In this document: piece after piece, positions 19,308-57,386 of the stretch
How positions within the stretch are numbered: the first letter of the stretch is position 1
Layout: each line of letters begins with the position of its first letter
From: a virus
Strand: one strand, 5' to 3'
Length of the DNA stretch: 64,000 nucleotides
Virus record (IMG/VR): IMGVR_UViG_3300045988_127881
The notes under the pieces: model-generated
Databases searched by the model: none
What the model saw: only the letters and a program-made list of their open reading frames with translations
What the model was told of the DNA's origin: nothing
Made by a program: the position numbers and the translations under genes

Positions 19308-19336
19308 AGCCCAGGCTAAAAGCCTGGGCTTTTTTT
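19308..19336. terminator. Hairpin terminator at the end of the tape measure gene
   Basis: AGCCCAGGC / GCCTGGGCT. The T-run lies on the plus strand and the A-run on the minus strand. Confidence 0.6.
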
Positions 19337-22300
19337 ATGTCTTAATGCGAACAGCCTTTCCACCATTACCCAATGTCAGCACACTGTTCAAGGCCGATTG
19401 TATGTTCTTTGCAGCCTCAGCGTTCGAGCGTGTATTAGCTTCTATCAGCTTCGCTTGTTGCACAATGGCATTAAGCTGCTTCAGCTGCTGCTCTGCAAGC
19501 ACATTCATCTGCGGAAAGGCTACCTCTACCACCTGTTTAAGCATGTCTCTGCTCATGCTCACATCTGCACGAATGGCGTTGATGTACGACGCAAGCAGCG
19601 AACCCGTCTCTTCTGTTAAACCTTTGATTGACGACGACATTGACGAAGAACTGCCAGAACTTGACAGCGCACCATCGGTACGTTCATTCACACCATCGCG
19701 CACCTTTTTTGAGTCTTCCACAAGCCTTGGCCCTACGTTGTCTCGGAAATCCACAATAAGGTCTATCACTTTATTTATAGAGTCGGGGTCATTCAAGTCG
19801 TAAGCCGCCTCTACCGCCTTCGACAACTTCTCCAGTTCTGGCATAATAATAGCTTGCGCAATTACATTCTTCGTTATGGTGTCAAGCAAATCGTTCACGC
19901 TGTTCGCAAACACCTCTGCCGCGTCTTGTCCATTCTTGAAGGCATCAACCAAGGCAGAAGACAAACTATTGGCAAAACTCGTAAAATCAATGCCGTATAT
20001 TTCTTTAAGCACATTCGATTTGAACTCGTTAATCTGTTCTGTTATTTCTTCAGCTTGCTTTTGGTAATCATCTGCTTTTGCTTTATCACCACTCTTGCCG
20101 TTCCTTTCTGTGTCGGCAGCGTCCAGAAGCTTATTCCTTTGCTGAACCAGTAGAGCATATTGAGCACCCAAGGCAGTTATATTCTTTGCCTTGTCATATC
20201 CCTCTTTCTTTAGTTCTTCACCATCATCTTTGTATTTTTTCTCCATGTGCGGTACGCCGTTTCCACCAAACGTAAATACCATATCATACCTTCTACTTGC
20301 CTCTACCATCTGCTTCCCGTCATTTTCACTTATGCCTTTTAGCATTTCGCTTACATCATTATAACGACCAACGTGGCTCTTTTCGTAATTTGCGGCAAGT
20401 TCCTGTGGACTTGTATAAATACCATACTTATTTACAATCTTGCCAAAATTTTCGGCTGCACTCCCTGATGTTTCAGATTCATAGGCATACCTTTCAGCCC
20501 TTTCGTGGGTTATTGCCCCAAACAAGTTAAAAAATGCAGATGCTGCACTTGTGAGAGAAGCAGCACCACCCAAAAAGTCACCACTCAAAAAGCTACCTGC
20601 TGCATCAGTTAAGTTTCCACCAACAGCACTTACAGTTTGGAGACCTTTTGCAAATTTATAAAAAGTAGAAGACTCACCTTTATACACACCTCCAGACATC
20701 TCCATAAGATTGTCTGCAATGCTACCTAATTTAGAAAATTCTTCCGCCACTTTTGAAAATGTATCAGAAGTATCATTTATAAGCTTCAAAAACCTCATGG
20801 CGGCGGCCAGGTGTTTCTCGGCGGCCTTCTTCTCTTTCTTCTTAGTGTCCTCGTCGTCTTTTAATTTTTTATGTTGTTCACTAAGAGAACTATCATTCCC
20901 AATCTGTTCGCCATATCTGAACTCAAAATCCTTCCTTTTCTCTGATGAATTAGCATAATCCACATTAGCTTTCTCGTACTTGGCCTTGTAGTGGTCCACA
21001 GACCATTGCGCTGCACCCTTTCTGCCTTCAAGGAAAAACTTACGGCTCTTAGTCGTATCGTTCTCCTTCTTTTCCTTCTGCTCGTCAAGCTTCTGCAAGT
21101 TGTCGTAATAGTCCTTTGCCGACATCTTGCCATCTTGAAACGCCTTGTCCAAATAGCCCCTTATCGTACTGTACACCGATTGCATGGTCTGTTCCGACAT
21201 CGACAGCACAGCCTGGAAGAACGTCATGTAGTCGCTGCCCTTCTGAAATTCCTCCCATTCCAATTTGCCAAGCTCTTCAAGGGCCTGCTTGTTACGCTCG
21301 CCAACAAGACGCGCTACCACGTCGGGCGGAAGCTTCTCGCCCATTTTCTCATTTAGCTTCGCAAATCTGGTTTCAAGTTTTTTTATAAGCTTTTCCTGCG
21401 TCTTGTATTCTTTTGTCTCTGGCTTCAAAAAATCAAGCCGTTCTTTTGCATAATCAAGACTTGTCTTTGTCTCGTCATATTGCGCTTTTAATTCATTATA
21501 CCCTCGTCCTTGCTCACGAATAGTTGCAACATCTTTCTGTTTCTTTTTCTCTACCGCATTTACCTTTTCGGCATAGTCTCGCGAACTCTTATACAAATCC
21601 GTAAACAGCTTGTCATTCTCACTCTTTATTTCCTTGTTGGCCTTCTGATAAGCCTCCACCAATTTCAGCACAGGACTGTATGCCTCGGCATTGTACCCAT
21701 ACGCTTTCTTTATCTCTTCCGTGTTCATTCTTAACACATCGTCCCATGCTTCCACACCCGAAGGCGTATTGTGAGACATGACAAACCCCAATCTCTCATA
21801 CATATCGTCCGCCATGTTCGTATGGTCATAATGGCCGTAGTCTTGACCGAACGCAAACCTTCCAGCGAGTTCTTTCGTAAACCCACCTTCTTGCAGCGTC
21901 TTGAATCTCGACCAAGCATCGCCAGCCCTGTCCAAGGCAGCCTCCAAGGTCTTCACTTGCTCGTCAAGCTTGTCCTTGTCCACTTGGAACGATATGTCAA
22001 ATTTTTCTCGCTCTATTTCGTCTATCAGCTTTTTCAGTGCGTCGCTTTTAGGCTTTATGCTGCCCTTCAACTTCACAAGCATCTTCTTATAGGCTGCCAC
22101 AAATTCCTCTCGGGTCTTTGCGGCATCGGGTATGAAATCTTTCTTGAACAGACCGCTATCCTTGATTTTATTCAAAGCACCCACGTCGCCATACAAGTCA
22201 CGAAGCTTCTCAAACACGTCTTTCACACGCTTCAGCTGGTTGTATTCTTCTTGCTTCTTTTTCTCATATTCTCTTAGCTGCTTCTCTTCTTCTCTTTGTC

Positions 22301-25300
22301 GCTTTTCCCTGGCTCTTCGCGCTTTTTCCGCAGCCTGGTTGTCTTTCTTGTTTAATTTTGCTTCTGTCTCCGACAATGCCCAAGGATTTACTCTTCTGAG
22401 TGCTTCCTTGTTCATCTCAATGTTATTCTCTATATTCTTTATTAGCTGGTCATTCCTTTTATTCTTCGCTGTTACAGTTTTCAGATACCGCAATCTTTCC
22501 GTGTCACGCTCTATGTTCGCCTGCCAGCCTTTTATCATTTCGTCTGTGCTCATGGCAGGGTCTGTCGGGCGTAGTAAAAAGTATTTCGCAGAGTCACCTT
22601 TTCCAGAAGGAAAGGCCGTGTCAAAAGTCTCTTGTGCATTACTTTTTACTGCTGTCTGTGGCGTGTTCAGCATATTGAACTGTATACCAATCCTAATCAT
22701 CAACTCGCTCGATGCAGCATTACACATCTGTCGCAGCTTAGCCTTGTAACCGTCAAACTGTTGCGGCAACTCGTCTATCATTCTGTTTATGGCTTCCTTT
22801 TGCGACTGACTGAAACCCTTCGACAGGTCTTTCCCCTCAAAGAGCTTCTTCGTCTTTTCTTGCATCAAGTCCATCAGTGCGTCCATCGCTGTGCTTTGCT
22901 GCTGCCATGTCGCATCACTCGAGGCCCTATACCTGCTTTCCATTTCAGCTATCATGGCCTGTGTTTCCTCCGCACCAAGCTTATGAAGGTTCGCATAATC
23001 CTGTATGTACGACACCATCTGCATGTGTCCAGCGTCAGTCAATGCGGTTATTTTCTGACCGTTATTCAATGTTTCGGTCACAACAGCACTCGAGTCGGAG
23101 TTTAACTGCGCCATTATGACAGCTGATGCCGAGGCCATGTCTGCGGCGAACACATCGTATGCTTGCTTGCTATCATGAATAGCATCTGACAGGTCTTCCA
23201 TAGAACCACCTAATTCAAACTCCCTGGTAGGATGATGAGTGGTGTTTGGATATTTCTGATTGAAATCATATATTGACTGCACAAACCCCTTTGAGTCACC
23301 AATACCTTTATAATATTCAAGTTCGCGCCTCAATTCCGCCAAGTCTTTCTTATATTGACTCGGCCCGTTTTTCTGTTTTAATTTTGCCCAATATGAATCT
23401 TGTTCGTTAAACCATTTGTCCATGTCGTCTTGCGACACCTTTGCCGACTCTTTCTCCACATCTCGCAGAGATTTAACGTATTCCTTAACGTTCTGATGCA
23501 ACTGGTCATCTGGTCCCCAGTCGTCTGTCTCGTCGTCTATCGCGTCCGACACCGATGCGGCATTATACTTTACCTTGTTCGCAGCTTCGGCAGCTTCTTC
23601 TGCTATTTTCTTCAGATATTTCAACCTTTTCGCCATGTCTGTTATAGAGTCCGCATGGTTCAAGGCAAAATCCACATTTATTGGCGAGTTGCGCAACTGC
23701 TCGGTATAGGCGTTCACAAGGTCTGCTATTTGCGTTTCATTCTTTGAACTTATCGCTATTTCAATCGGGTTCGCGTCAACAAAGTCTTTCAGTTCCTTGT
23801 AAGCTTGCTTGAAGCCCTCCATGCTGTCTTTCGCATGGTCTTCACGCATGTTCTCGTCTTCCTTGTAGTTCGACCACAAACTAAATGCTGCTGTCAAGGC
23901 AAGCATCGGCCACATCGAAACAAGCATCGCTTTGATGGCAGAGCCTGCCATAAGGGCAGTATTCCAAATGCCTGTAAGAGCCATTTTTGACTTTGTCCAA
24001 AGCATCTTCATTCCAACACCACACTTGGCAAGGCTAAACGACATCTGATTAAATTCCTTGTTCAGAGCAATCATCTTGGTTCTCCACTGCTCAGCATGAG
24101 TTATATACGTCTTTATCCAATCCTTGTCTTTGGCACTTATTATCCGCTCACCTGTCTTGGGGTCATATTGCGGTGCGCCCATATATAACGGGGTAAGGCT
24201 GGCGGCACTCTGACCCTTCAGTATCAGTCTGCGAGCCTCTCGGCCAGCCGCTCTCCGCTCTCTGTGCGTCATGCCACTGTACCACGAGCCATCTGCTCTG
24301 TAAAAGCCCTGACTGACATTCTTCTTGTTCATCGCAACAACAAGCTCGTTATACGCCTCAGTCTGTGCTCTAACAGCCATGGTCTGCTGGTTTATCATGG
24401 CCGAAGTCGAAGCCGCACGCTGGCTCATAAATGCAGCCACACGCCCCTTGGCCGCGAGCAAACCGTATGCTGCGACCGCACCAATTATCACGTTTCCGTA
24501 CAATTTCCAGTTTAATATCGCTTTCGTCAGCAAGGAAATTGCACCTTTCAACACACCCTTGTTCGATGTCTCTAATTCCGAGTAGGCTATCTCTATACTA
24601 TCTTTCAGGTTCGACCACTTGCCAGCTACGCTGTCGCTAAGCTTCTCCTGCATCTTATAAAACTTGCCGCCCTCGCTCGTGTACTTGTCTATTATCTCCT
24701 TTACATCTTCAAAGCGCACTTGCTTTTCCGACACCATGTTATACACATCGCCTGCCGATATTTGCTGGCCTCTCTCCTTGGTGTATTTGTTGGCCAATTC
24801 TTGCACAAGGGGTATACCTGCCTCCGTAAATTGGCGCAACTCAGGGCCTTTCAAGAACTTTGCAGTAAACACCTGGCCGTAGGCAAGGATTACACGGCCC
24901 ATGTCCACACCGATACCTGCCGACAAGTCTGCCAGCCGCTTTGTCGTGTCGTATATGTCTTTATATTCAAATCCGAATGATGCAAGTTGCTTCGTGAAAT
25001 TCGTCAGTTCACCAAAGGTAAAGGGCGATTGCACTGCAAGGTTCTGTATCTTTGAATACATCGTATCGGCCTTCAATTTGCTGCCGAACAAAGCTCCGAG
25101 CGCAATCTTCTGCTTTTCAAACTCGCCACCTATCTGTATCAGATTGTCCAAAAACTGCTTTGCGCCATATATTGAGAATATGTTCTGCAACTGGTCACGG
25201 AGCCAGCCGCCTCTGCTGCCAACATTCTGCATCTCGCTTACAATGTTGCGCAGGTCTCTCGCATATCCGCCAGCATTCAGCTTGCTCAATTTTATGTTCG

Positions 25301-26771
25301 ATGCCACCTTGTCTATCTGACGCATCTTGGCATTCAGCGCATCTACCGCACTGTTCAACTTGCTGAGTGTCGCAGGGTCGGCCTTTGTGCCATTTATCGA
25401 GTTCTGTCTTATCTCGGATTTGTACCGTCGCACTTCTGCTATCAGAGGCGTAAGCTCTTTGTAAGTAGTGCGTCTTGCCGCACTACCAATCGGGAAACTG
25501 CTGTTGACCTTGTGTCTGTAGCCAAAAGCCCTCGACAATAGCTCAGAACTATTTTGCAATGGCATACGCAACGCAGCTCTGTTTGCTTCCATACGCGCAG
25601 CCACACGCGCCTGCTTCGCGCTTTCCGCATTCAGAGCCTTTATCTGCGTAGTGGCCGACGAAGCTGCCTTGTTTATCTGATTATAAAGCAAAGGCGCACG
25701 CGTCCCCTTGTTCTCAACCATTTTGGCATTTTCAAGGGTATGAACGTAACGGCTGAGTGCCGACTGCGCGTTCTTCAACTCTGGCGTCAACTGGCCGCCC
25801 TTTGAGGTGTACGCACTTATCTTGGCCAAAGTTTCTTTTGCCTTGGCCAGTGCGTCTGCATTCTTAAAGGCATTCTTTATGTCAGCTTCTCTGTTCGAAT
25901 GTTGTATGGCTCTCTCTTTTTCCCATGCCTTATAGCGCAATGAACCTTTCTCTGGCAAATTCCTTACCGTCATCACACGGTAGGGGTTCATCAGCATTTG
26001 TCTAATGCCATCTATATATCTTTGCTGCCCGCTCATGCTGTTTAATGCAGCCACACGTTTGTCAAGCATTGCCTGCATATTGGCACGCTTGCGTCCCTTC
26101 ACGCTATTTACATAGCGTTGCATCTCCGCTATTTCTTTAGCCTCTTTGTTAAATGCAGCAAGATTTCGCCCCTTTTGCGGAGACAAAAGAATTTCTCTAT
26201 TGAGATTTTTATAGCTCGACGACCACCCGCTCCTTGTCACCACCTTTTCTTTCCAGCTTCCAGAAAGATAAGTTGAACTTGCACTGCTTTTCGCACTCGG
26301 TCTTGCGGCTTGTCTTGCAGGCTGCGCAGCTGGCTCGCTGCGCTGGCTTTTCTTGCCCGTGTCTTGCGTTGTCTTAACCTTGATGGTTTCTCCTACTGCC
26401 GACTGTACAGCCTTCTTGATGCCCGACGTGTCTACGGCCACCTTTGCCACATACGACCCCTTGTTTATGGCTGATTGTATGTCAGCGGCCAATGACGAAG
26501 CGTTGGCCTTTACTGCTGCGGTAAATTTACCCTTGCTAATAGCACTGTTTATATCGGCAACAATAGCTTTCGTGTCGGCCTTCACTGTCAACTTTAGCTC
26601 CGTTCCTTTCTTCGACGAAACAGCACTTAGTGCAGAGTTCAAGCCATTAACATCTATCTTGGGTGATATGGCTACATTCAGCTTCCGTATCTTGTCCTCA
26701 ATAGATTTTATTCCTGCTGAAGTGCTATCCTTTATCTGTACTTCATAAAAAAGATTTCCGAGATTTGCCAT
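19335..26771 (-). CDS. Tail tape measure protein (2478 aa)
   Basis: Uninterrupted giant ORF, helix- and coiled-coil-rich with central hydrophobic segments. Lies downstream of the chaperone pair. Confidence 0.9.
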   Translation of the reverse strand: MANLGNLFYEVQIKDSTSAGIKSIEDKIRKLNVAISPKIDVNGLNSALSAVSSKKGTELKLTVKADTKAIVADINSAISKGKFTAAVKANASSLAADIQSAINKGSYVAKVAVDTSGIKKAVQSAVGETIKVKTTQDTGKKSQRSEPAAQPARQAARPSAKSSASSTYLSGSWKEKVVTRSGWSSSYKNLNREILLSPQKGRNLAAFNKEAKEIAEMQRYVNSVKGRKRANMQAMLDKRVAALNSMSGQQRYIDGIRQMLMNPYRVMTVRNLPEKGSLRYKAWEKERAIQHSNREADIKNAFKNADALAKAKETLAKISAYTSKGGQLTPELKNAQSALSRYVHTLENAKMVENKGTRAPLLYNQINKAASSATTQIKALNAESAKQARVAARMEANRAALRMPLQNSSELLSRAFGYRHKVNSSFPIGSAARRTTYKELTPLIAEVRRYKSEIRQNSINGTKADPATLSKLNSAVDALNAKMRQIDKVASNIKLSKLNAGGYARDLRNIVSEMQNVGSRGGWLRDQLQNIFSIYGAKQFLDNLIQIGGEFEKQKIALGALFGSKLKADTMYSKIQNLAVQSPFTFGELTNFTKQLASFGFEYKDIYDTTKRLADLSAGIGVDMGRVILAYGQVFTAKFLKGPELRQFTEAGIPLVQELANKYTKERGQQISAGDVYNMVSEKQVRFEDVKEIIDKYTSEGGKFYKMQEKLSDSVAGKWSNLKDSIEIAYSELETSNKGVLKGAISLLTKAILNWKLYGNVIIGAVAAYGLLAAKGRVAAFMSQRAASTSAMINQQTMAVRAQTEAYNELVVAMNKKNVSQGFYRADGSWYSGMTHRERRAAGREARRLILKGQSAASLTPLYMGAPQYDPKTGERIISAKDKDWIKTYITHAEQWRTKMIALNKEFNQMSFSLAKCGVGMKMLWTKSKMALTGIWNTALMAGSAIKAMLVSMWPMLALTAAFSLWSNYKEDENMREDHAKDSMEGFKQAYKELKDFVDANPIEIAISSKNETQIADLVNAYTEQLRNSPINVDFALNHADSITDMAKRLKYLKKIAEEAAEAANKVKYNAASVSDAIDDETDDWGPDDQLHQNVKEYVKSLRDVEKESAKVSQDDMDKWFNEQDSYWAKLKQKNGPSQYKKDLAELRRELEYYKGIGDSKGFVQSIYDFNQKYPNTTHHPTREFELGGSMEDLSDAIHDSKQAYDVFAADMASASAVIMAQLNSDSSAVVTETLNNGQKITALTDAGHMQMVSYIQDYANLHKLGAEETQAMIAEMESRYRASSDATWQQQSTAMDALMDLMQEKTKKLFEGKDLSKGFSQSQKEAINRMIDELPQQFDGYKAKLRQMCNAASSELMIRIGIQFNMLNTPQTAVKSNAQETFDTAFPSGKGDSAKYFLLRPTDPAMSTDEMIKGWQANIERDTERLRYLKTVTAKNKRNDQLIKNIENNIEMNKEALRRVNPWALSETEAKLNKKDNQAAEKARRAREKRQREEEKQLREYEKKKQEEYNQLKRVKDVFEKLRDLYGDVGALNKIKDSGLFKKDFIPDAAKTREEFVAAYKKMLVKLKGSIKPKSDALKKLIDEIEREKFDISFQVDKDKLDEQVKTLEAALDRAGDAWSRFKTLQEGGFTKELAGRFAFGQDYGHYDHTNMADDMYERLGFVMSHNTPSGVEAWDDVLRMNTEEIKKAYGYNAEAYSPVLKLVEAYQKANKEIKSENDKLFTDLYKSSRDYAEKVNAVEKKKQKDVATIREQGRGYNELKAQYDETKTSLDYAKERLDFLKPETKEYKTQEKLIKKLETRFAKLNEKMGEKLPPDVVARLVGERNKQALEELGKLEWEEFQKGSDYMTFFQAVLSMSEQTMQSVYSTIRGYLDKAFQDGKMSAKDYYDNLQKLDEQKEKKENDTTKSRKFFLEGRKGAAQWSVDHYKAKYEKANVDYANSSEKRKDFEFRYGEQIGNDSSLSEQHKKLKDDEDTKKKEKKAAEKHLAAAMRFLKLINDTSDTFSKVAEEFSKLGSIADNLMEMSGGVYKGESSTFYKFAKGLQTVSAVGGNLTDAAGSFLSGDFLGGAASLTSAASAFFNLFGAITHERAERYAYESETSGSAAENFGKIVNKYGIYTSPQELAANYEKSHVGRYNDVSEMLKGISENDGKQMVEASRRYDMVFTFGGNGVPHMEKKYKDDGEELKKEGYDKAKNITALGAQYALLVQQRNKLLDAADTERNGKSGDKAKADDYQKQAEEITEQINEFKSNVLKEIYGIDFTSFANSLSSALVDAFKNGQDAAEVFANSVNDLLDTITKNVIAQAIIMPELEKLSKAVEAAYDLNDPDSINKVIDLIVDFRDNVGPRLVEDSKKVRDGVNERTDGALSSSGSSSSMSSSIKGLTEETGSLLASYINAIRADVSMSRDMLKQVVEVAFPQMNVLAEQQLKQLNAIVQQAKLIEANTRSNAEAAKNIQSALNSVLTLGNGGKAVRIKT

Positions 26772-39197: not shown

Positions 39198-39267
39198 TGG
39201 CACATTAGGTAATGGCCGCAAGGTCAGGGCTTTGCAATAGTGCTGGGGTTCGATGCCCCGTGTGCCA
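39198..39267 (+). ncRNA. tRNA-like element 1 (70 nt), non-canonical body
   Basis: Perfect 7-bp acceptor stem TGGCACA/TGTGCCA. T arm TGGGG-TTCGATG-CCCCG. Only a weak anticodon-like arm (loop TTGCAAT, GCA). No normal D arm; GGCC-GCAA-GGTC hairpin instead. Confidence 0.45.
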
Positions 39268-39294
39268 CTAATATTAACTAAAACCTCTAAGAAC

Positions 39295-39582
39295 ATGACA
39301 GATTTAGAGAAATATATCACCGAGTGTATTGAAAGAAATGAAGATTACCAAGCCGATTATAGCGGCTGTGTCGAAGCTGAATACGGCAACATTTATATAA
39401 GTTGTCACTTCAGTATTCAGAGCGAAGGCTACTACGAAGATGACTACTTCAACGGAACTGGTGCTTTCGTGGAGACGTATTACTACTTTTGTATCGATGA
39501 TATAACCGCCTACGACGAAAACGATAACGAAGTAAGCGTGGACATAGAAGCTATTGAGGACTATATCAATAAAGAACACTGA
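39295..39582 (+). CDS. Hypothetical acidic protein (95 aa)
   Basis: ATG at 39295. The track start 39253 overlaps the tRNA-like element. Confidence 0.6.
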   Translation: MTDLEKYITECIERNEDYQADYSGCVEAEYGNIYISCHFSIQSEGYYEDDYFNGTGAFVETYYYFCIDDITAYDENDNEVSVDIEAIEDYINKEH

Positions 39583-39610
39583 CTTTATAAATCACACTAA
39601 AACAGCGATT

Positions 39611-40060
39611 ATGACAAAAGAACAAACCGAACAGATTAAAGAACTCGAGCTACGAGTGCTCGAGGATTACAAAGAAATGGAAGGCTTCTTTGCCGACGTG
39701 AACAGACTCACGATTGACGGCAAGCCTACACAAGAGTCTGAATTAGCAAAAGACGCATTGGACAAATTGGAAGATGCCTATATTGCTATTCAGAAACTCA
39801 GAAGCACATTCGGTGACAACTACTACTTGAACCTGTCTGCCGAAGAAAAAAAACAGATTAGGAAGAACAAGGCAAAAATGAAAGTTAAGGTGGCTCGTGG
39901 AGTTGCCAGCAAAATTGCAAATCAGTTTGGCTGCTCTAACTCAAAGGTTTTTGGGGCACTGCACTTCCAAAGTAACAGCGCAATCTCCAAAGCAATTAGG
40001 GAAGCAGCATTGAAATACTACAACGGAAGAATAATAAGGGCTGAAAGCTTTTTGAAATAA
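39611..40060 (+). CDS. Hypothetical protein (149 aa), possible C-terminal HTH
   Basis: ATG at 39611 (MTKEQTEQIKELE...). Confidence 0.6.
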   Translation: MTKEQTEQIKELELRVLEDYKEMEGFFADVNRLTIDGKPTQESELAKDALDKLEDAYIAIQKLRSTFGDNYYLNLSAEEKKQIRKNKAKMKVKVARGVASKIANQFGCSNSKVFGALHFQSNSAISKAIREAALKYYNGRIIRAESFLK

Positions 40061-40148: not shown

Positions 40149-40223
40149 TCTGGTGATAGCAGGTTAAATGGATAGGCCGAATATCCTTGTCGGGCATTAG
40201 CGAGTTCGATTCTCGCCACCAGA
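40149..40223 (+). ncRNA. tRNA-like element 2 (75 nt), non-canonical body
   Basis: Perfect acceptor stem TCTGGTG/CACCAGA. T arm GCGAG-TTCGATT-CTCGC. Internal 5-bp/7-nt hairpin GGATA-GGCCGAA-TATCC is displaced from the anticodon-arm position. No D stem. Confidence 0.45.
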
Positions 40224-40242
40224 ACAATAAAAAATAAATATT

Positions 40243-40467
40243 ATGAAATGGTTATGCTTTTCGCTCATAGTAGTGCTTGACTTCATAGCCTGCACAATGA
40301 TGAGCGTGTCCGCAGGACACAGTAGTTTTACAATTTACGACCTTATACCTTTTTGTGGTATTTCGCTCTTTTTAGCCACCGCTGTTATGGCGGTGTGCTT
40401 ATATCAAACTGGAATGCTACCGAATACTATACAAAAACTAATAAAGAAATCTCTTGAAGATTGCTGA
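40243..40467 (+). CDS. Small membrane protein (74 aa)
   Basis: ORF track. Two hydrophobic helices. Confidence 0.6.
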   Translation: MKWLCFSLIVVLDFIACTMMSVSAGHSSFTIYDLIPFCGISLFLATAVMAVCLYQTGMLPNTIQKLIKKSLEDC

Positions 40468-40468
40468 C

Positions 40469-40681
40469 ATGATGGACAAAAAACAAACAGACAAAGTAAA
40501 AACAATAATGCGGAAAGCTTACGAAGTCTACAATGAGATAGACGCATTGATAGACGCGATTAAGGGCTATTCTGACTATGAGGAAGTTGAAGAACTGAAA
40601 TCTGCACGCGACACAGCTTGCGATGTTGTAGACGCTCTCCAATACATACAAGAGAACTATGGCGAAAACGATTATAGGTAA
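40469..40681 (+). CDS. Hypothetical small protein (70 aa)
   Basis: ATG at 40469. The track start 40454 is a TTG. Confidence 0.55.
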   Translation: MMDKKQTDKVKTIMRKAYEVYNEIDALIDAIKGYSDYEEVEELKSARDTACDVVDALQYIQENYGENDYR

Positions 40682-40781
40682 CATATACTGAGTTCTTTAA
40701 GGTTATGGGCAATTAACCCAGTCGCGAGATTGCACGCCCTTTGTTTTTAGTGTGACAGGCCGCTACTATGCGGCCTCACAA

Positions 40782-40929
40782 GCAGGTGATAGGCCGTTAA
40801 TCGGATAGACGGCAGAAGATAGTACATTGAACTCGCTACCATTATGATGCTGGATAGCCCTTGGTAGCGCGTTCTTTTTTTTGCGAAACGTTAGGACATT
40901 AGCTGGTTCGACTCCAGCCACCTGCGCCA
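40782..40929 (+). ncRNA. tRNA-like element 3 (148 nt) with encoded CCA and a roughly 90-nt insertion in place of the anticodon domain
   Basis: Acceptor stem GCAGGTG/CACCTGC, then G, then CCA. D-like arm GCCG-13 nt-CGGC. T arm GCTGG-TTCGACT-CCAGC. Inner 8-bp hairpin CGCTACCA/TGGTAGCG. Shares GTGATAG, GGATAG and CATTAGC blocks with element 2. Confidence 0.45.
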
Positions 40930-40965: not shown

Positions 40966-41556
40966 ATGGAAAAGAAAGAGGCAAAACCAATGACCTTTAT
41001 TGAAAAGGTCGTATCTGTGCAACGAGATTTGAAAGCCCCCAAGGGACAATATAACAAGTTCGGCAAATACCGATACCGTTCGGCCGAGGATATTCTGAAT
41101 TCGGTAAAACCTCTCCTTGCGAGTGTGGGCCTTGTGCTGACGCTCGAAGATGAAGTCTGCCTGATTGGCGCAAGATATTACATAAAGGCAACCGCAGTGC
41201 TGACAGACGGCACACATAACCTGGTAAAGAGTGCCTATGCGCGCGAGGACGAAGTTCACAAGGGCAGCGATGGCGCGCAAATCACAGGCGCGGCAAGCTC
41301 ATACGCACGAAAGTACGCCCTAAACGGGCTGTTCTGCATAGACGACGCAAAGGACGCAGACGCAACAAATGACGGCACCGCACAAGCCAACAACAACCAA
41401 CATGAGGAGCGCGTGCAGCTGGCAATACAAGAGGTTGACAATGCAAAGAGTAGAAAGTCACTCACGGACATTTGGAACAATTATTCTGACTTGCAGTCTG
41501 ACGCACGCTTCTCACAAGCAGTTGCAAATGCAAGCAAAAACTACCCCAAGCCATGA
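40966..41556 (+). CDS. erf: ERF-family single-strand annealing protein
   Basis: 196 aa. ...YRYRSAEDILNSVKPLLASVGL ... GAASSYARKYALNGLFCIDDAKDAD pattern. Confidence 0.6.
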   Translation: MEKKEAKPMTFIEKVVSVQRDLKAPKGQYNKFGKYRYRSAEDILNSVKPLLASVGLVLTLEDEVCLIGARYYIKATAVLTDGTHNLVKSAYAREDEVHKGSDGAQITGAASSYARKYALNGLFCIDDAKDADATNDGTAQANNNQHEERVQLAIQEVDNAKSRKSLTDIWNNYSDLQSDARFSQAVANASKNYPKP

Positions 41557-56387: not shown

Positions 56388-56396
56388 TAATTGCGT

Positions 56397-57386
56397 ATGA
56401 AAAATTCCGAATTAGAATTTAAGCTAAAGGAAGTTCTACCTAAATTCAGTGCGCAATTCCAACAAAAAATGCTGCACAGCATCGAATTGCTACGTAAGGC
56501 TGAACGGCTTGCCAAGTCCTATGACAAAGAAAATGGATACTTCCTCGCTTTTAGCGGAGGAAAGGACAGCCAATGTCTTTACCACATTGCGAAGTTGGCT
56601 GGCGTGCAATTTCAAGCGCACATGAACCTTACAAGCGTCGACCCTCCCGAAGTAATCCGTTTTGTTCGGGAACAATACCCTGACGTGGAACTTGCCAAAC
56701 CACACGACAGTATTTTTAATGTGGCTATAAGGCGTAAAATCTTGCCTACCATGCGTGTGAGGTGGTGCTGCGAGGAATACAAGGAAATGGCTGGGGCTGG
56801 AAAGGTTACACTTATCGGCATAAGAAAAGCTGAGTCGGTACGAAGAGCTAAACGCAATGAAGTCGAAATCAACAACCACTCTTTTAGTGGCACACTTGAC
56901 GAACTTGAAGATTACCGAAAACAAAAAACCGCGAAGGCCAAGCAACGAAAAGCACAAAAGAATGGCGGGGGCGTGACCATAGTCAATGCCGACGGCGAGC
57001 GTGTCCTTGGTTGTATCAGAGGCAAGGAGTCGCTGCTTATTTCGCCTATCATTGAATGGACTGACAAGGAGGTTTGGCTATTCCTTAACACGCTCGGCAT
57101 AGCCCATTGCGAACTTTACGACCAAGGCTTTAACCGTATAGGCTGCATTATCTGCCCTATGAGTTCTCCAAAGCAACGAGCAAAAGAAATGATGCGTTGG
57201 CCTCATGTAAAGCGCAACTGGATTAAAGCCATCAAAGCTATCCGTGCTGGGGGGGGGTATTTCAAAAAGAATATATCTGGTGGAACATCAAACGCGACCT
57301 CATTCCGTGCGACAATCGCAGAGGATTGCTCAGGAAACAAACCGCACAAGAAATCAACCCAAAGAAGCCACACATGGGTTTTCTGA
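56397..57386 (+). CDS. PAPS reductase-like PP-loop protein
   Basis: PP-loop FSGGKDS and Cys cluster IGCIICP. ATG at 56397. A G9 tract near the 3' end may alter the C-terminus. Confidence 0.75.
   Translation: MKNSELEFKLKEVLPKFSAQFQQKMLHSIELLRKAERLAKSYDKENGYFLAFSGGKDSQCLYHIAKLAGVQFQAHMNLTSVDPPEVIRFVREQYPDVELAKPHDSIFNVAIRRKILPTMRVRWCCEEYKEMAGAGKVTLIGIRKAESVRRAKRNEVEINNHSFSGTLDELEDYRKQKTAKAKQRKAQKNGGGVTIVNADGERVLGCIRGKESLLISPIIEWTDKEVWLFLNTLGIAHCELYDQGFNRIGCIICPMSSPKQRAKEMMRWPHVKRNWIKAIKAIRAGGGYFKKNISGGTSNATSFRATIAEDCSGNKPHKKSTQRSHTWVF
57249..57257 (+). repeat. G9 homopolymer inside the PAPS-reductase-like gene
   Basis: GCTGGGGGGGGGTAT. An alternative frame downstream stays open to 57528. Confidence 0.9.

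Follow-up and report, generated by a model that had tools for sequence, protein, structure and literature searches.

The 148-nt element at positions 40782-40929 of the window (the whole 64,000-nt stretch of viral DNA analyzed here, IMG/VR record IMGVR_UViG_3300045988_127881) is a member of an uncatalogued, abundant family of RNAs in temperate gut phages, for which we propose the name AUAG-type TLEs, anticodon-less tRNA-like RNAs. Pattern scans and a covariance model (R1), applied to viral and gut-metagenome contigs, recovered 57 distinct elements, which measure 79-159 nt. The family is abundant in human-gut temperate phages, a few pattern scans having given about 100 loci. A variable arm replaces the anticodon arm in these RNAs, which are therefore unable to decode. 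We assign a probability of about 0.55 to the whole explanation that the element is a discrete RNA gene whose product would be processed into a non-decoding tRNA mimic binding a tRNA-recognizing protein.

Architecture of the 148-nt element

The first-pass annotation had proposed a 148-nt tRNA-like element, and every feature described there was reconfirmed at its coordinates. The parts of the element, together with the hairpin upstream of it and two further tRNA-like elements in the window (TLE1 and TLE2), are as follows.

39198-39271, plus strand: TLE1, the third tRNA-like element, which heads the early operon and whose 'anticodon' loop has 8 nt
40149-40227, plus strand: TLE2, a 79-nt short-arm member of the AUAG-type family (R1 43.9 bits, E = 1.6e-8)
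40751-40780, plus strand: upstream hairpin UGUGA-CA-GGCCGC / loop UACUAU / GCGGCC-UCACA, ending 1 nt before the element
40782-40929, plus strand: predicted anticodon-less tRNA-like RNA gene of 148 nt, a long-arm family member
40782-40788, plus strand: acceptor 5' strand GCAGGUG, pairing perfectly with 40919-40925
40789-40792, plus strand: AUAG linker, 4 nt as against 2 in tRNA, the family signature
40793-40813, plus strand: D arm, a 6-bp stem (GCCGUU/GACGGC) with a 9-nt loop (AAUCGGAUA) holding the G18 and G19 equivalents
40814-40819, plus strand: P2 5' strand AGAAGA, the foot of the long arm, partnered by the U tract in the MFE fold
40820-40828, plus strand: UAGUACAUU, a conserved 5' bulge that belongs to GAUAGUAC and hardly varies within the A/B group
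40829-40841, plus strand: 5' strands of P3 (GAAC) and P4 (CGCUACCA), separated by a U opposite C40870
40842-40861, plus strand: apical loop UUAUGAUGCUGGAUAGCCCU, containing the mini-hairpin GCU-GGAU-AGC and resembling a tRNA D loop
40862-40874, plus strand: 3' strands of P4 and P3 (UGGUAGCG-C-GUUC), on the same evidence as their 5' strands
40875-40882, plus strand: T8 tract, the P2 3' strand, terminator-like with P3/P4 in this sublineage only
40883-40901, plus strand: conserved junction GCGAAACGUUAGGACAUUA, of which the final 5-9 nt (..GGACAUUA) form the variable-loop signature common to the whole family
40902-40918, plus strand: T arm GCUGG-UUCGACU-CCAGC with a canonical T loop, as read from the sequence
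40919-40929, plus strand: acceptor 3' strand CACCUGC, discriminator G (G40926) and CCA (40927-40929)

The acceptor pairing (GCAGGTG with CACCTGC), the G and CCA that follow it and the T arm (GCTGG-TTCGACT-CCAGC) lie as first described, and the D-like arm, originally read as GCCG...CGGC, extends to 6 bp (GCCGTT, 40793-40798; GACGGC, 40808-40813), closing a canonical-looking 9-nt loop (AATCGGATA). The body is that of a tRNA, with a 7-bp acceptor, a 5-bp T stem, a T loop of the form UUCRANY, and G18 and G19; a 5-bp anticodon stem with a 7-nt loop (U33, purine 37) is absent. Position 3:70 is A:U, so that the reported lack of a G3:U70 pair holds. The long arm, an irregular helix of roughly 88 nt that runs through P2, P3 and P4 to a D-loop-like tip (GAUGCUGGAUAGCC), contains the previously noted 8-bp hairpin (CGCTACCA/TGGTAGCG; 40834-40841 and 40862-40869) and T8 tract, and the element as a whole folds with a z-score of -2.7.

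A minihelix scan for a canonical T loop on a 5-bp T stem, combined with a 7-bp acceptor, matched the window four times, whereas 40 dinucleotide shuffles averaged 0.5 matches. Of the four window matches, three lie on one strand within 1.7 kb. The pentamer GAUAG occurs four times in the 148-nt element, a count reached by that 5-mer in none of 20,000 shuffles and by any complex 5-mer in 0.7% of them; long arms carry on average ~1.5 copies, against 0.09 expected.

TLE2, laid out as UCUGGUG-AUAG-...AAAUGGAUA...GGGCAUUA-GCGAG-UUCGAUU-CUCGC-CACCAGA-ACAA, was recovered again by the minihelix scan and sits in a gap between independently called genes. TLE1, which is without the AUAG-type core, is also a minihelix-scan match, is called 'tRNA-??? 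(cagg)' by ARAGORN, folds with z = -2.4 and is conserved in relatives L001 and L002.

The hairpin first placed at 40757-40776 (AGGCCGC/GCGGCCT) is present and extends to 40751-40780, with a folding z-score of -4.4. It is kept in all group A contexts, and 20 of 51 distinct family contexts hold a different, covarying hairpin in the same slot, its inner stem capped by a GNRA loop. Most family elements are preceded by a stable hairpin ending 1-6 nt upstream.

Absence from catalogues

ARAGORN in default tRNA mode made no call at the 148-nt element. The Rfam search suggested by the first-pass annotation returned no match at gathering thresholds, the best being tRNA-Sec (18.5 bits, E = 0.41; cut-off 47), which supports the reading as an uncatalogued RNA. 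The family as a whole is absent from Rfam, ARAGORN calls, GenBank phages and plasmids: 50,697 GenBank phage records yielded nothing beyond a 47-nt tRNA-like stretch, PLSDB plasmids gave no match, and no description was found in the literature. The suggestion of a new class of phage tRNA-like noncoding RNA is thus borne out by a family that neither Rfam nor ARAGORN recognizes.

The exact 3' half of the element occurs in only 5 of 185,579 species genomes, none of the matches being a Bacteroidota tRNA, and a parent host tRNA or att site was rejected on this ground. The GCAGGTG acceptor also occurs in ordinary phage tRNAs of various identities, Gly, Leu and Ile among them, and therefore gives no tRNA type; an insert-free tRNA with the same acceptor was accordingly discarded as a guide to the source type. 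As an antisense sRNA the element was likewise rejected, its longest ungapped duplex with window transcripts being 17, compared with 15-20 for shuffled elements.

A covarying tRNA-like core

In the shared core, a 7-bp acceptor is followed by the AUAG linker and by a 6-bp D stem whose loop reads AAnnGGAUA; on the 3' side, CAUUA precedes the T stem, which closes a UUCGAYU loop. All are present in the 148-nt element, with AUAG at 40789-40792, the D stem at 40793-40813 closing an AAnnGGAUA loop, CAUUA and the T stem with its UUCGAYU loop at 40897-40918, and C74 at C40927. Alignment of 21 core sequences revealed changes on both sides in 14 of 18 pairs, with 94.4% of cells paired versus 62% in shuffled alignments and 34-50% with slid partners, and a covariation score of 0.84 versus 0.20. 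The D stem, unused in sequence selection except for the fixed G15 and T17, changed on both sides at three of its six pairs with 93% of cells paired. All seven acceptor pairs changed on both sides across the family, in sequences that had been selected for at least 6 of 7 pairs, and four of five T-stem pairs did so, the acceptor and T stems having been partly selected for pairing during family extraction. The fold of the element is backed by covariation, and the family exists.

AUAG is found in 57/57 members, a count to be read with its use in the search pattern that collected them; it is also found in the covariance-model hits L003, L004 and window 40149, all obtained before the pattern was designed. 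CAUU is invariant in the 21-sequence alignment and the next A nearly so.

The termini are more variable. Position 73 is A in 41 members, G in 12 and U in 4, C74 is invariant (57/57), position 75 may be any base and A76 occurs in 45/57. The encoded CCA noted at first is present in the element, but it belongs to a sublineage and is not a conserved feature, the full triplet being encoded in only 16/57 members. An intact acceptor and discriminator region, with its invariant C74, frequent A76 and predominant A73, could serve a non-ribosomal aminoacyl carrier, charged by a synthetase blind to the anticodon (LeuRS-, SerRS- or AlaRS-type) and donating to a transferase or reporting amino-acid supply to the lysis-lysogeny circuit; some synthetases need no anticodon. 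However, acceptor sequences vary freely and contain no conserved identity pair (3:70 is G:U in only 1 of the 21 aligned sequences), the discriminator varies among A, G and U even between near-identical copies, and no recurrent aminoacyl-transferase gene lies nearby, making such a carrier improbable.

A hypervariable arm at the anticodon-arm position

The replacement of the anticodon arm ranges from a tetraloop-capped hairpin up to about 100 nt. In short members its place is taken by a 5-bp hairpin capped by a tetraloop, or by other loops that are not anticodon loops, and the 7-nt anticodon loop is absent from every family member, short or long. The insert in the window copy is an expansion of this hypervariable arm and not an interruption of a normal tRNA. 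The 'insert' of the first-pass annotation thus survives as a tRNA-derived scaffold carrying a functional insert, the element being one of 57 covarying members, and falls as an insertion into a normal tRNA, a hypervariable arm having grown instead.

In the long-arm alignment, which was guided by and fitted to the model, diverged long forms show two-sided changes at 6 of 12 P3/P4 pairs, with 94-96% of cells paired. P2 is the weakest helix, paired in 68-78% of cells in relatives, where its 3' partner differs (GGUAUUC, GGUCUU) and pairing is partly kept. The GAUAGUAC bulge and the tip GAYGCUGGAUAGCC stay constant while the stems covary: GAUAG(U/C)AC of the bulge is kept in diverged long forms despite differing stems, and the tip is common to A/B, L253 and the L237/L247/L248/L251/L261 lineage, among which the stems beneath it differ entirely. 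Within A/B, GAAACGUUAGGACAUU of the junction is almost invariant, and diversity is shallow, with only one pair changed on both sides. The first-pass annotation had called for a comparative search for covariation in the insert and took an unconserved insert structure as grounds for abandoning its reading; the long-arm stems covary and the loop motifs are conserved.

The T8 tract, reported correctly for this element, is likewise a sublineage trait, T7 or T8 being found in group A and GGTATTC or GGTCTT in groups B, L114, L171 and the diverged long forms. A 12-bp hairpin directly 5' of U8 in the window copy, the site just downstream of the immunity region and the GNRA-capped hairpin before many relatives would all suit a transcription-control element, in which hairpin and U tract act as an intrinsic terminator or attenuator, the upstream hairpin as a nut/boxB-like or put-like antitermination site, and the tRNA likeness is secondary. 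Lambda nutR/tR1 also lies just downstream of the immunity region. This arrangement is decidedly improbable: the hairpin and U tract of an intrinsic terminator are not conserved together, the tract being replaced by GGUAUUC or GGUCUU in groups B, L114, L171 and all diverged long forms, short members are without such a hairpin, a terminator scan made no call at hairpin plus T8, and the covarying acceptor, D and T stems are left unexplained. In the window copy, the hairpin and T8 could stop transcription inside the element, which counts against the main explanation, as does the poor support for P2.

An intron-containing or disrupted tRNA was also considered at the outset. In such a gene, an insert of 70-90 nt would be removed by splicing, like the Lak 'enigmatic introns', or would have killed the gene. 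Phage tRNA introns are reported in Prevotella megaphages (PMC6784885), the relative in L084 is located in a tRNA array, and ARAGORN, with introns allowed and a threshold of 80%, calls tRNA-Arg(GCG) with a 68-nt intron. Yet removal of every internal 30-109-nt segment from five variants, followed by renewed ARAGORN runs, produced only weak and inconsistent calls, eight of them for the window copy and not one for group B, and the models had mismatched stems, so that no deletion gives a convincing cloverleaf. The GCG triplet, which lies in the junction, varies among near-identical copies (GCU, GUG, GCA, -CG), arguing against an anticodon, and the insert-free relatives at L003 2893-2971 and window 40149-40227 still have no anticodon loop. 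No Rfam intron or ribozyme matched at E <= 10 (hammerhead, twister, pistol, hatchet and HDV-like ribozymes being sought in the insert), about 88 nt is too small for a group I intron, these being well above that length, and neither a group I core nor a bulge-helix-bulge motif is recognizable. A dead gene is further contradicted by an element more conserved than its neighbors. We regard an intron-containing or disrupted tRNA as very improbable. A target-site duplication, given by the repeat UAGUACAUU / UAGGACAUU around a 72-nt segment, was rejected on inspection, the remaining 76 nt having no anticodon arm.

With a tRNA-like domain whose anticodon arm gives way to a long helix, the element recalls a miniature tmRNA-like rescue RNA with a short tag frame in the insert, and a GCU/GCA codon after GAACUC does open the frames ATIMMLDSPW*, AIR* and AIPSC*. 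The 'tag', however, varies in length and sequence, with a 1-nt insertion shifting the frame in L111; G3:U70 and pseudoknots are absent, ARAGORN tmRNA mode and the Rfam tmRNA models came up empty, and short members are too small for a frame. This possibility is effectively refuted already.

Early-operon context and conservation

All three elements lie within the early operon, between repressor and recombination genes, interspersed on the coding strand: TLE1 precedes ORF 39253, TLE2 lies between ORFs 39554-40060 and 40243-40467, and the 148-nt element between ORF 40454-40681 and ERF, which starts at 40966 and is followed by a PD-(D/E)XK nuclease. The context is repeated in 88 loci; 44 of these have a repressor upstream, encoded on the other strand, and one of two alternative recombination modules lies downstream. 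The position immediately upstream of the ERF and nuclease genes, pointed out in the first-pass annotation, is therefore true of the window but incidental, ERF adjacency not being conserved; only the early-operon position upstream of a recombination module is. Clustering of 783 neighboring ORFs from the 88 loci gave no partner protein accompanying every element, an observation that counts against the main explanation. The host is suggested only by the integrase arm domain, which is of Bacteroidota type, and this too counts against the main explanation.

Between phages the element forms an island of 87-93% identity, compared with 79-84% for integrases and 67-75% for other shared genes; its identity above that of neighboring genes points to selection on the RNA. 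Flanks are unalignable between relatives, and homology runs from G1 to nt 73-76. Flanking modules that differ exactly at the element ends, and the frequent targeting of tRNA genes by integrases, could indicate a DNA-level element, either a conserved linker that promotes recombination between modules or an att-like piece of a tRNA used in integration. Compensatory changes in four helices signify selection on RNA pairing instead, and the integrase is separated from the element by 2.6 kb that contain the repressor and four ORFs, while both halves of the tRNA-like fold are present; a role in DNA alone is hardly credible.

AUAG-type TLEs lie in the rightward early operon, flanked by the repressor/integrase module on one side and the recombination genes on the other. 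They occur as single copies or as small head-to-tail clusters, which in some cases also include genuine tRNAs. Some loci hold two or three elements head-to-tail with 7-nt spacers and no intervening ORF, tandem copies of this kind being present in L243 and L245, and genuine tRNAs fill the same genomic slot in relatives L003 and L004.

This layout bears on cis punctuation, in which the elements would be RNase P / RNase Z cleavage signals cutting the polycistronic early transcript into mRNAs that are stable or translatable separately, the excised RNA would be a by-product, and the upstream hairpin would shield the 3' end newly formed on the fragment before it. The interspersion of three elements among early coding-strand ORFs, the stable hairpin 1-6 nt before most elements, and the presence of acceptor, T arm and elbow, the parts that RNase P requires, are all in its favor. 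A minihelix and elbow would nevertheless suffice for such a signal, leaving the invariant AUAG, the 6-bp D stem, CAUUA and the long arm's conserved bulge and tip unexplained, and head-to-tail elements have no ORF between them to separate. Punctuation is compatible with the main explanation and does not exclude it; as the sole function we hold it unlikely, and if the elements were only processing signals, they would constitute a bacterial-virus case of tRNA punctuation of mRNAs.

A proposed non-decoding tRNA mimic

Under the favored explanation, in which the family RNAs probably act as tRNA mimics, the element would be co-transcribed with early genes, cut by RNase P at G40782 and processed in the manner of tRNA 3' ends near 40926, with CCA added or repaired. 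A tRNA-like biogenesis is suggested by the 7-nt tandem spacing, the genuine tRNAs in the same slot and the invariant C74. The RNA retains all the parts by which the processing machinery recognizes a tRNA, namely the 7-bp acceptor stem, the T arm and the D loop with its G18 and G19 equivalents, and hence presumably the elbow, and a stable non-decoding RNA may then accumulate that mimics tRNA. Its conserved core, with the repeated GAUAG motifs in long forms, could provide a platform titrating or recruiting a tRNA-recognizing protein, the most attractive candidate partners being a tRNA-targeting defense nuclease or toxin, or a host tRNA-handling enzyme.

More speculatively, arrays of non-decoding mimics may trap or disarm tRNA-recognizing immune nucleases and toxins, or hijack a host tRNA-handling enzyme, as the early recombination genes switch on; candidate targets would include OLD/PARIS-type Toprim nucleases, anticodon nucleases and tRNA-modifying toxins. 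This extension is tentative. Good documentation exists both for nucleases that target tRNA and for tRNA-based counter-measures of phages, which favors a mimic; the documented phage answers are functional replacement tRNAs and not decoys, which counts against one (PMC12445682, PMC10264068).

Phage tRNA genes are now being reinterpreted as weapons against tRNA-cleaving defense, and the family indicates that phages also keep non-decoding tRNA-shaped RNAs, under clear selection for RNA structure, that standard tRNA and Rfam annotation overlooks. Its modular design, a constant core with an exchangeable arm, is open to experiment. If the mimic or decoy reading is true, the family would represent a new RNA class in phage counter-defense and a handle on the stable RNAs of classical phage tRNA clusters; mimic arrays would in turn define an RNA-based anti-defense or host-takeover class and supply a functional precedent for the 50-year-old T4 RNAC/RNAD puzzle.

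Comparison with known tRNA-like RNAs

The closest analogue of the AUAG-type family is RNAC of phage T4, which with RNAD (species 1 and 2) belongs to the small stable RNAs of a phage tRNA cluster whose roles are unknown (PMC3014915, PMC9697503). Like the element, RNAC (139 nt) combines a canonical T arm (CCGGG-UUCGAAU-CCCGG) and a terminal stem with long internal hairpins at the anticodon-arm position. The likeness is architectural only: rnaC shows no sequence homology (R1 12.2 bits), its terminal stem is imperfect, and AUAG linker, 6-bp D stem and CAUUA core are all missing from it. In T4, a virulent coliphage, these RNAs are expressed late, whereas the AUAG-type family occupies the early operon of temperate gut phages.

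Canonical phage tRNAs, including anti-defense replacements, share with the family the acceptor, T arm, D loop, clustering and genomic slot, and tRNA-targeting defenses are a plausible selective setting (PMC12445682, PMC10264068). The family differs from them in having no 7-nt anticodon loop, which precludes decoding or replacement, a linker of 4 nt in place of 2, and a D stem of 6 bp in place of 3-4 bp, and in falling below threshold in Rfam and ARAGORN. The tRNAs with 'enigmatic introns' of Lak megaphages (Prevotella) are also over-long and missed by standard bacterial tRNA finders (PMC6784885). Removal of their insert leaves a tRNA with an anticodon, and insert-free alleles exist, whereas no deletion turns the 148-nt element into a tRNA, and its insert-free relatives still have no anticodon loop.

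The tRNA-like domain of tmRNA, as in the element, joins acceptor and T arm to a long helix at the anticodon-arm position. Unlike tmRNA, the element has a real D stem, no G3:U70, no conserved tag frame, no pseudoknots and no model match, and is less than half as long. YrlA Y-RNA-like RNAs, gammaherpesvirus vtRNAs, mascRNA and engineered scaffolds use a tRNA-like elbow for processing, stability or protein recruitment without decoding, and engineered tRNA scaffolds carry cargo in place of the anticodon arm. The termini of YrlA form a Ro-binding stem, as opposed to the acceptor stem of the element, and Rfam YrlA (RF02553) has no match in the window; vtRNAs and mascRNA are eukaryotic or viral-eukaryotic and depend on Pol III and RNase Z.

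Myxococcota tRNA arrays contain insert-bearing tRNAs of 124-145 nt with an identical GCAGGUG acceptor and T arm, carrying, as in the element, a structured insert (64-79 nt) at the anticodon-loop position. Unlike the AUAG-type family, they possess a canonical 2-nt linker and 4-bp D arm and score 41-49 bits against the Rfam tRNA model. Their insert motifs (CCGUCYYUCAC, GAUGGUUAUC) are distinct from those of the family, and the established likeness is that of the tRNA body.

Architecture of TLE3

The tRNA-like outline proposed for TLE3 (window 40782-40929, +) in the first-pass annotation is borne out by the sequence. Perfect pairing joins the acceptor strands GCAGGTG (40782-40788) and CACCTGC (40919-40925), with G and CCA after the latter, and GCTGG-TTCGACT-CCAGC at 40902-40918 forms the T arm. 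The D-like arm is longer than first described, comprising a 6-bp stem (GCCGTT/GACGGC) and a 9-nt loop, AATCGGATA, with equivalents of A14, G18 G19, and A21 all present. Both the 8-bp inner hairpin and the T8 tract were found, the upstream hairpin extends to 40751-40780 (folding z-score -4.4), and ERF and PD-(D/E)XK nuclease genes lie directly downstream, as reported. Scanning for a T stem, canonical T loop, and 7-bp acceptor yielded four matches in the window against a mean of 0.5 in 40 dinucleotide shuffles, three of them on the same strand within 1.7 kb. Element positions 40-47 and 112-119 form an internal direct repeat (UAGUACAUU/UAGGACAUU), one copy preceding the long-arm hairpin and the other the T arm; deleting the segment between them leaves exactly 76 nt, without an anticodon arm.

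TLE3 and known RNA classes

ARAGORN with default settings reported nothing at TLE3, nor did Rfam 15 at gathering thresholds, the search proposed at first pass; the best permissive Rfam match was tRNA-Sec (18.5 bits, E = 0.41). The rival reading as an intron-bearing tRNA comes from ARAGORN with introns allowed and a score threshold of 80%, which calls tRNA-Arg(GCG) with a 68-nt intron. When every internal segment was deleted in turn and ARAGORN rerun, the window copy yielded just eight weak calls, their stems mismatched, and the variant from group B, a close relative without the T tract, yielded none; near-identical copies read GCU, GUG, GCA, or -CG at the supposed anticodon. As for a tmRNA, TLE3 lacks G3:U70 and matches no tmRNA model, and the short frames after GAACUC are not conserved. 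A search for antisense targets within the phage found none above chance. We place at roughly 0.9 the probability that TLE3 is a member of the AUAG-type family of tRNA-like elements and not a tRNA, an intron, or a tmRNA.

The AUAG-type family

A search with R1, a covariance model built from the close relatives of TLE3 (groups A and B), revealed shorter, clearly related elements in other ERF-linked phages and a second copy in the window.

AUAG-type elements related to TLE3
L003 2893-2971: short-arm member, 79 nt; AUAG linker, D arm as in TLE3, CAUUA before the T stem
L003 2720-2825 and L004 1612-1726: family members; D, T, and acceptor stems compensated
Window 40149-40227, +: TLE2, 79 nt; R1 43.9 bits, E = 1.6e-8; ~550 nt upstream of TLE3

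The short-arm member carries a 5-bp hairpin with a tetraloop at the anticodon-arm position. TLE2 was missed by both ARAGORN and Rfam, and Rfam contains neither AUAG-type elements nor the GNRA-capped hairpin that precedes many of them. Three more scans, keyed to the noncanonical 5' signature, brought the family to 57 distinct elements of 79-159 nt.

In the core alignment (21 sequences), both sides changed in 14 of 18 pairs; 94.4% of cells are paired, versus 62% after shuffling and 34-50% with slid partners, and the covariation score is 0.84 versus 0.20, with pairing of the acceptor and T stems having been partly a selection criterion at extraction. The D stem, not selected for pairing, changed on both sides in three of its six pairs. 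Invariant features comprise the AUAG linker, G15-C29, U17.G27, and the AA..GGAUA loop in the 5' part, and CAUU (the next A nearly so), the G-C pair closing the T loop, and the T loop UUCGA.U in the 3' part. C74 is present in 57/57 members and A76 in 45/57; position 75 accepts any base, so the full CCA is encoded in only 16/57. AUAG-type elements form a structured, selected, non-decoding tRNA-like RNA family in which the noncanonical core is constant and the arm exchangeable. Viral tRNA-like small RNAs are known as a general kind; this family within it is new, and the TLE3 finding is real and non-trivial, TLE3 being a long-arm variant of the family.

The arm replacing the anticodon arm

Across the family, about 14 to about 100 nt separate the D arm from CAUUA, and a 7-nt anticodon loop occurs in none of the 57 elements; the ~88-nt arm of TLE3 is therefore an expanded hypervariable arm. 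Of the insert first envisaged in a tRNA-like scaffold, the long structured segment stands, whereas interruption of a normal tRNA does not, since short members also lack an anticodon loop.

In diverged long forms (L253 and the L237/L247/L248/L251/L261 lineage) the stems differ considerably, with GAAC...GUUC, for example, replaced by GCCGGGGG...CCCCCGGU. These forms retain the 8-bp apical stem, compensated at three positions, the 5' bulge GAUAG(U/C)AC, and the tip GAYGCUGGAUAGCC. Covariation within the insert, suggested earlier as a check, was found in a model-guided alignment: in the middle and apical helices (P3/P4), both sides changed in 6 of 12 pairs with 94-96% of cells paired, and the basal helix P2, whose 3' strand is the T8 tract, is weak (68%). 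GAUAG occurs four times in TLE3 (linker, D loop, bulge, and tip), a count that this specific 5-mer never reached in 20,000 shuffles, with four copies of any complex 5-mer arising in 0.7%; long arms average about 1.5 copies versus 0.09 expected. The arm tip, GCUGGAUAG, resembles a tRNA D loop.

Near relatives and selection

Scanning IMG/VR and metagenomes by pattern recovered about 25 near relatives of TLE3, almost all from human-gut samples and in at least three flanking contexts, with homology beginning exactly at G1 and stopping at nt 73-76. Comparing the window phage with two related phages gives 87-93% identity for TLE3, 79-84% for integrase genes, and 67-75% for other shared genes; the directly flanking DNA does not align. 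The A/B group is shallow: its 5' 47 nt and 3' ~45 nt hardly vary, the inner hairpin changes in sequence but stays paired, and variation is greatest in the T tract (T7/T8, GGTATTC, or GGTCTT).

Genomic context

The window is entirely phage, encoding primase, major head protein, terminase, portal, integrase, and an unusually long tape-measure protein (2478 aa; 19335-26771, -); this phage is known from metagenome assemblies only. A phosphoadenosine-phosphosulfate-reductase-like gene lies at 56391-57386 (+; PHROG 424, E = 1e-36). TLE2, TLE3, and a third tRNA-like element, TLE1, occupy gaps that separate independently called genes in the early operon, all three on its coding strand.

Window 39198-39271, +: TLE1; ARAGORN 'tRNA-???' with 4-base anticodon cagg and 8-nt 'anticodon' loop

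The acceptor of TLE1 is 7 bp, its T-arm loop reads UUCGAUG, and its D arm is reduced; the AUAG-type core is absent. Flanked by the CI-like repressor and the first early ORF, TLE1 is conserved in L001 and L002. Neighbourhoods are consistent across 88 loci: upstream on the other strand are an integrase and a CI-like repressor (the repressor in 44 loci), and downstream is either of two recombination modules, together with an HTH gene and SSB; none of the protein families occurs with every element. Groups of two or three elements are frequent, with spacings down to 7 nt, and genuine tRNAs occupy the same slot in relatives. AUAG-type elements sit within the early operon and share the organisation of tRNA genes. 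In one related phage, a 95-nt tRNA with an amber-suppressor-like CUA anticodon (L003 2390-2484; ARAGORN 'tRNA-Pyl') lies directly upstream of two family members and ERF.

A conserved, defined hairpin ends about 5 nt before the element in 20 of 51 distinct upstream contexts (L003 2861-2888, L187, L247, and others). This GNRA-capped hairpin consists of an outer stem of 7-8 bp that covaries, a purine.A mismatch, and an inner stem (G.U/U-A/N-N/C-G) with a GUGA or GCGA cap, and carries AUAG on the 3' side; the equivalent slot of TLE3 (40751-40780) holds a different, stable hairpin. The GNRA-capped hairpin could be a protein-binding, boxB-like or 3'-end-protecting element.

Proposed function

tRNA-like excision of AUAG-type elements is probable: they would be co-transcribed with early genes, released by RNase P and tRNA 3'-end enzymes, and given or repaired a CCA where none is encoded. 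The products might then accumulate as stable tRNA mimics. A core conserved beyond RNase P needs, together with the GAUAG-bearing bulge and tip of long forms, would point to a specific tRNA-binding partner, and we advance such a mimic-binding function only tentatively. In view of what is now known of defence nucleases that target tRNAs and of phage tRNA counter-measures, the latter documented so far as functional replacement tRNAs (PMC12445682, PMC10264068), a putative role as decoy or inhibitor of such defence is attractive. The main rival, cis punctuation of early mRNA in which the upstream hairpin would shield the newly made 3' end, is consistent with the interspersed layout but leaves unexplained the conserved core and arm motifs and the tandem copies without an intervening ORF; it may well coexist with mimicry. 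Further rivals, besides the intron-bearing tRNA and the tmRNA, are an aminoacyl carrier, a terminator/antiterminator, and a DNA-level role.

Comparison with other RNAs

The nearest analogue is T4 RNAC/RNAD, stable RNAs of the T4 tRNA cluster whose role is unknown (PMC3014915, PMC9697503). RNAC likewise combines a canonical T arm and a terminal stem with long internal hairpins, but shows no homology to the family. In T4 rnaC (L264 1409-1547, -), the T arm by the 3' end, two long internal hairpins, and a fold z of -4.6 support a probable tRNA-derived, non-decoding RNA comparable to AUAG-type elements. Lak megaphage tRNA 'introns' differ in that their removal restores a tRNA (PMC6784885). The tmRNA tRNA-like domain, YrlA, herpesvirus vtRNAs, and engineered tRNA scaffolds share a non-decoding tRNA body with the family but not its defining features.

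Other elements of 124-145 nt, in dense tRNA arrays of Myxococcota MAGs and metagenome contigs, have acceptor GCAGGUG and T arm identical to TLE3 but a canonical D arm and other insert motifs, shared among themselves (CCGTCYYTCAC, CTCGCCCG..CGGGC, and GATGGTTATC). A 64-79-nt structured insert replaces their anticodon loop, and they score 41-49 bits as Rfam tRNA.

Myxococcota-type and L084 elements
L090 5320-5447, 5537-5681, and 5878-6018: Myxococcota-type
L091 6475-6605, -: Myxococcota-type
L093 5190-5316: Myxococcota-type
L167 2942-3069, -: Myxococcota-type
L084 4288-4440 and 5600-5748: in a phage tRNA array

Further long forms occur in other phages (L084, L100/L112, L166, and L182). With the Myxococcota elements, they suggest that anticodon-arm replacement in tRNA-type genes is commoner than current annotation implies. 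The 153-nt L084 element has a canonical D arm and a hairpin base, GAACUCGCAA...UUGCGUUUC, common to group B; 1.2 kb downstream in the same array lies a RAGATH-36 RNA match (70.6 bits; gathering score 70). In the tRNA-like elements L100 6979-7110 and L112 1088-1218 (-), which are 131-132 nt long, a 57-nt insert follows the D arm and precedes a 5-bp/7-nt hairpin (loop CAKCGCA); the hairpin inside the insert covaries (GACAG/CUGUC vs GUGGC/GCCGC) and encloses a conserved 20-nt loop, CGAAUACUCGCGAUAAGUA.

L025 2025-2098 (same position in about 15 ERF-linked loci) and L018 1596-1667 are near-perfect tRNAs with a tetraloop for the anticodon loop (CAUGU-UUCU-ACAUG), a canonical D arm, an AGGUC variable loop, and a T arm, which ARAGORN reports as 'tRNA-???', giving them anticodons of two bases. 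In related temperate phages, they appear to be a second type of tRNA mimic that lacks an anticodon.
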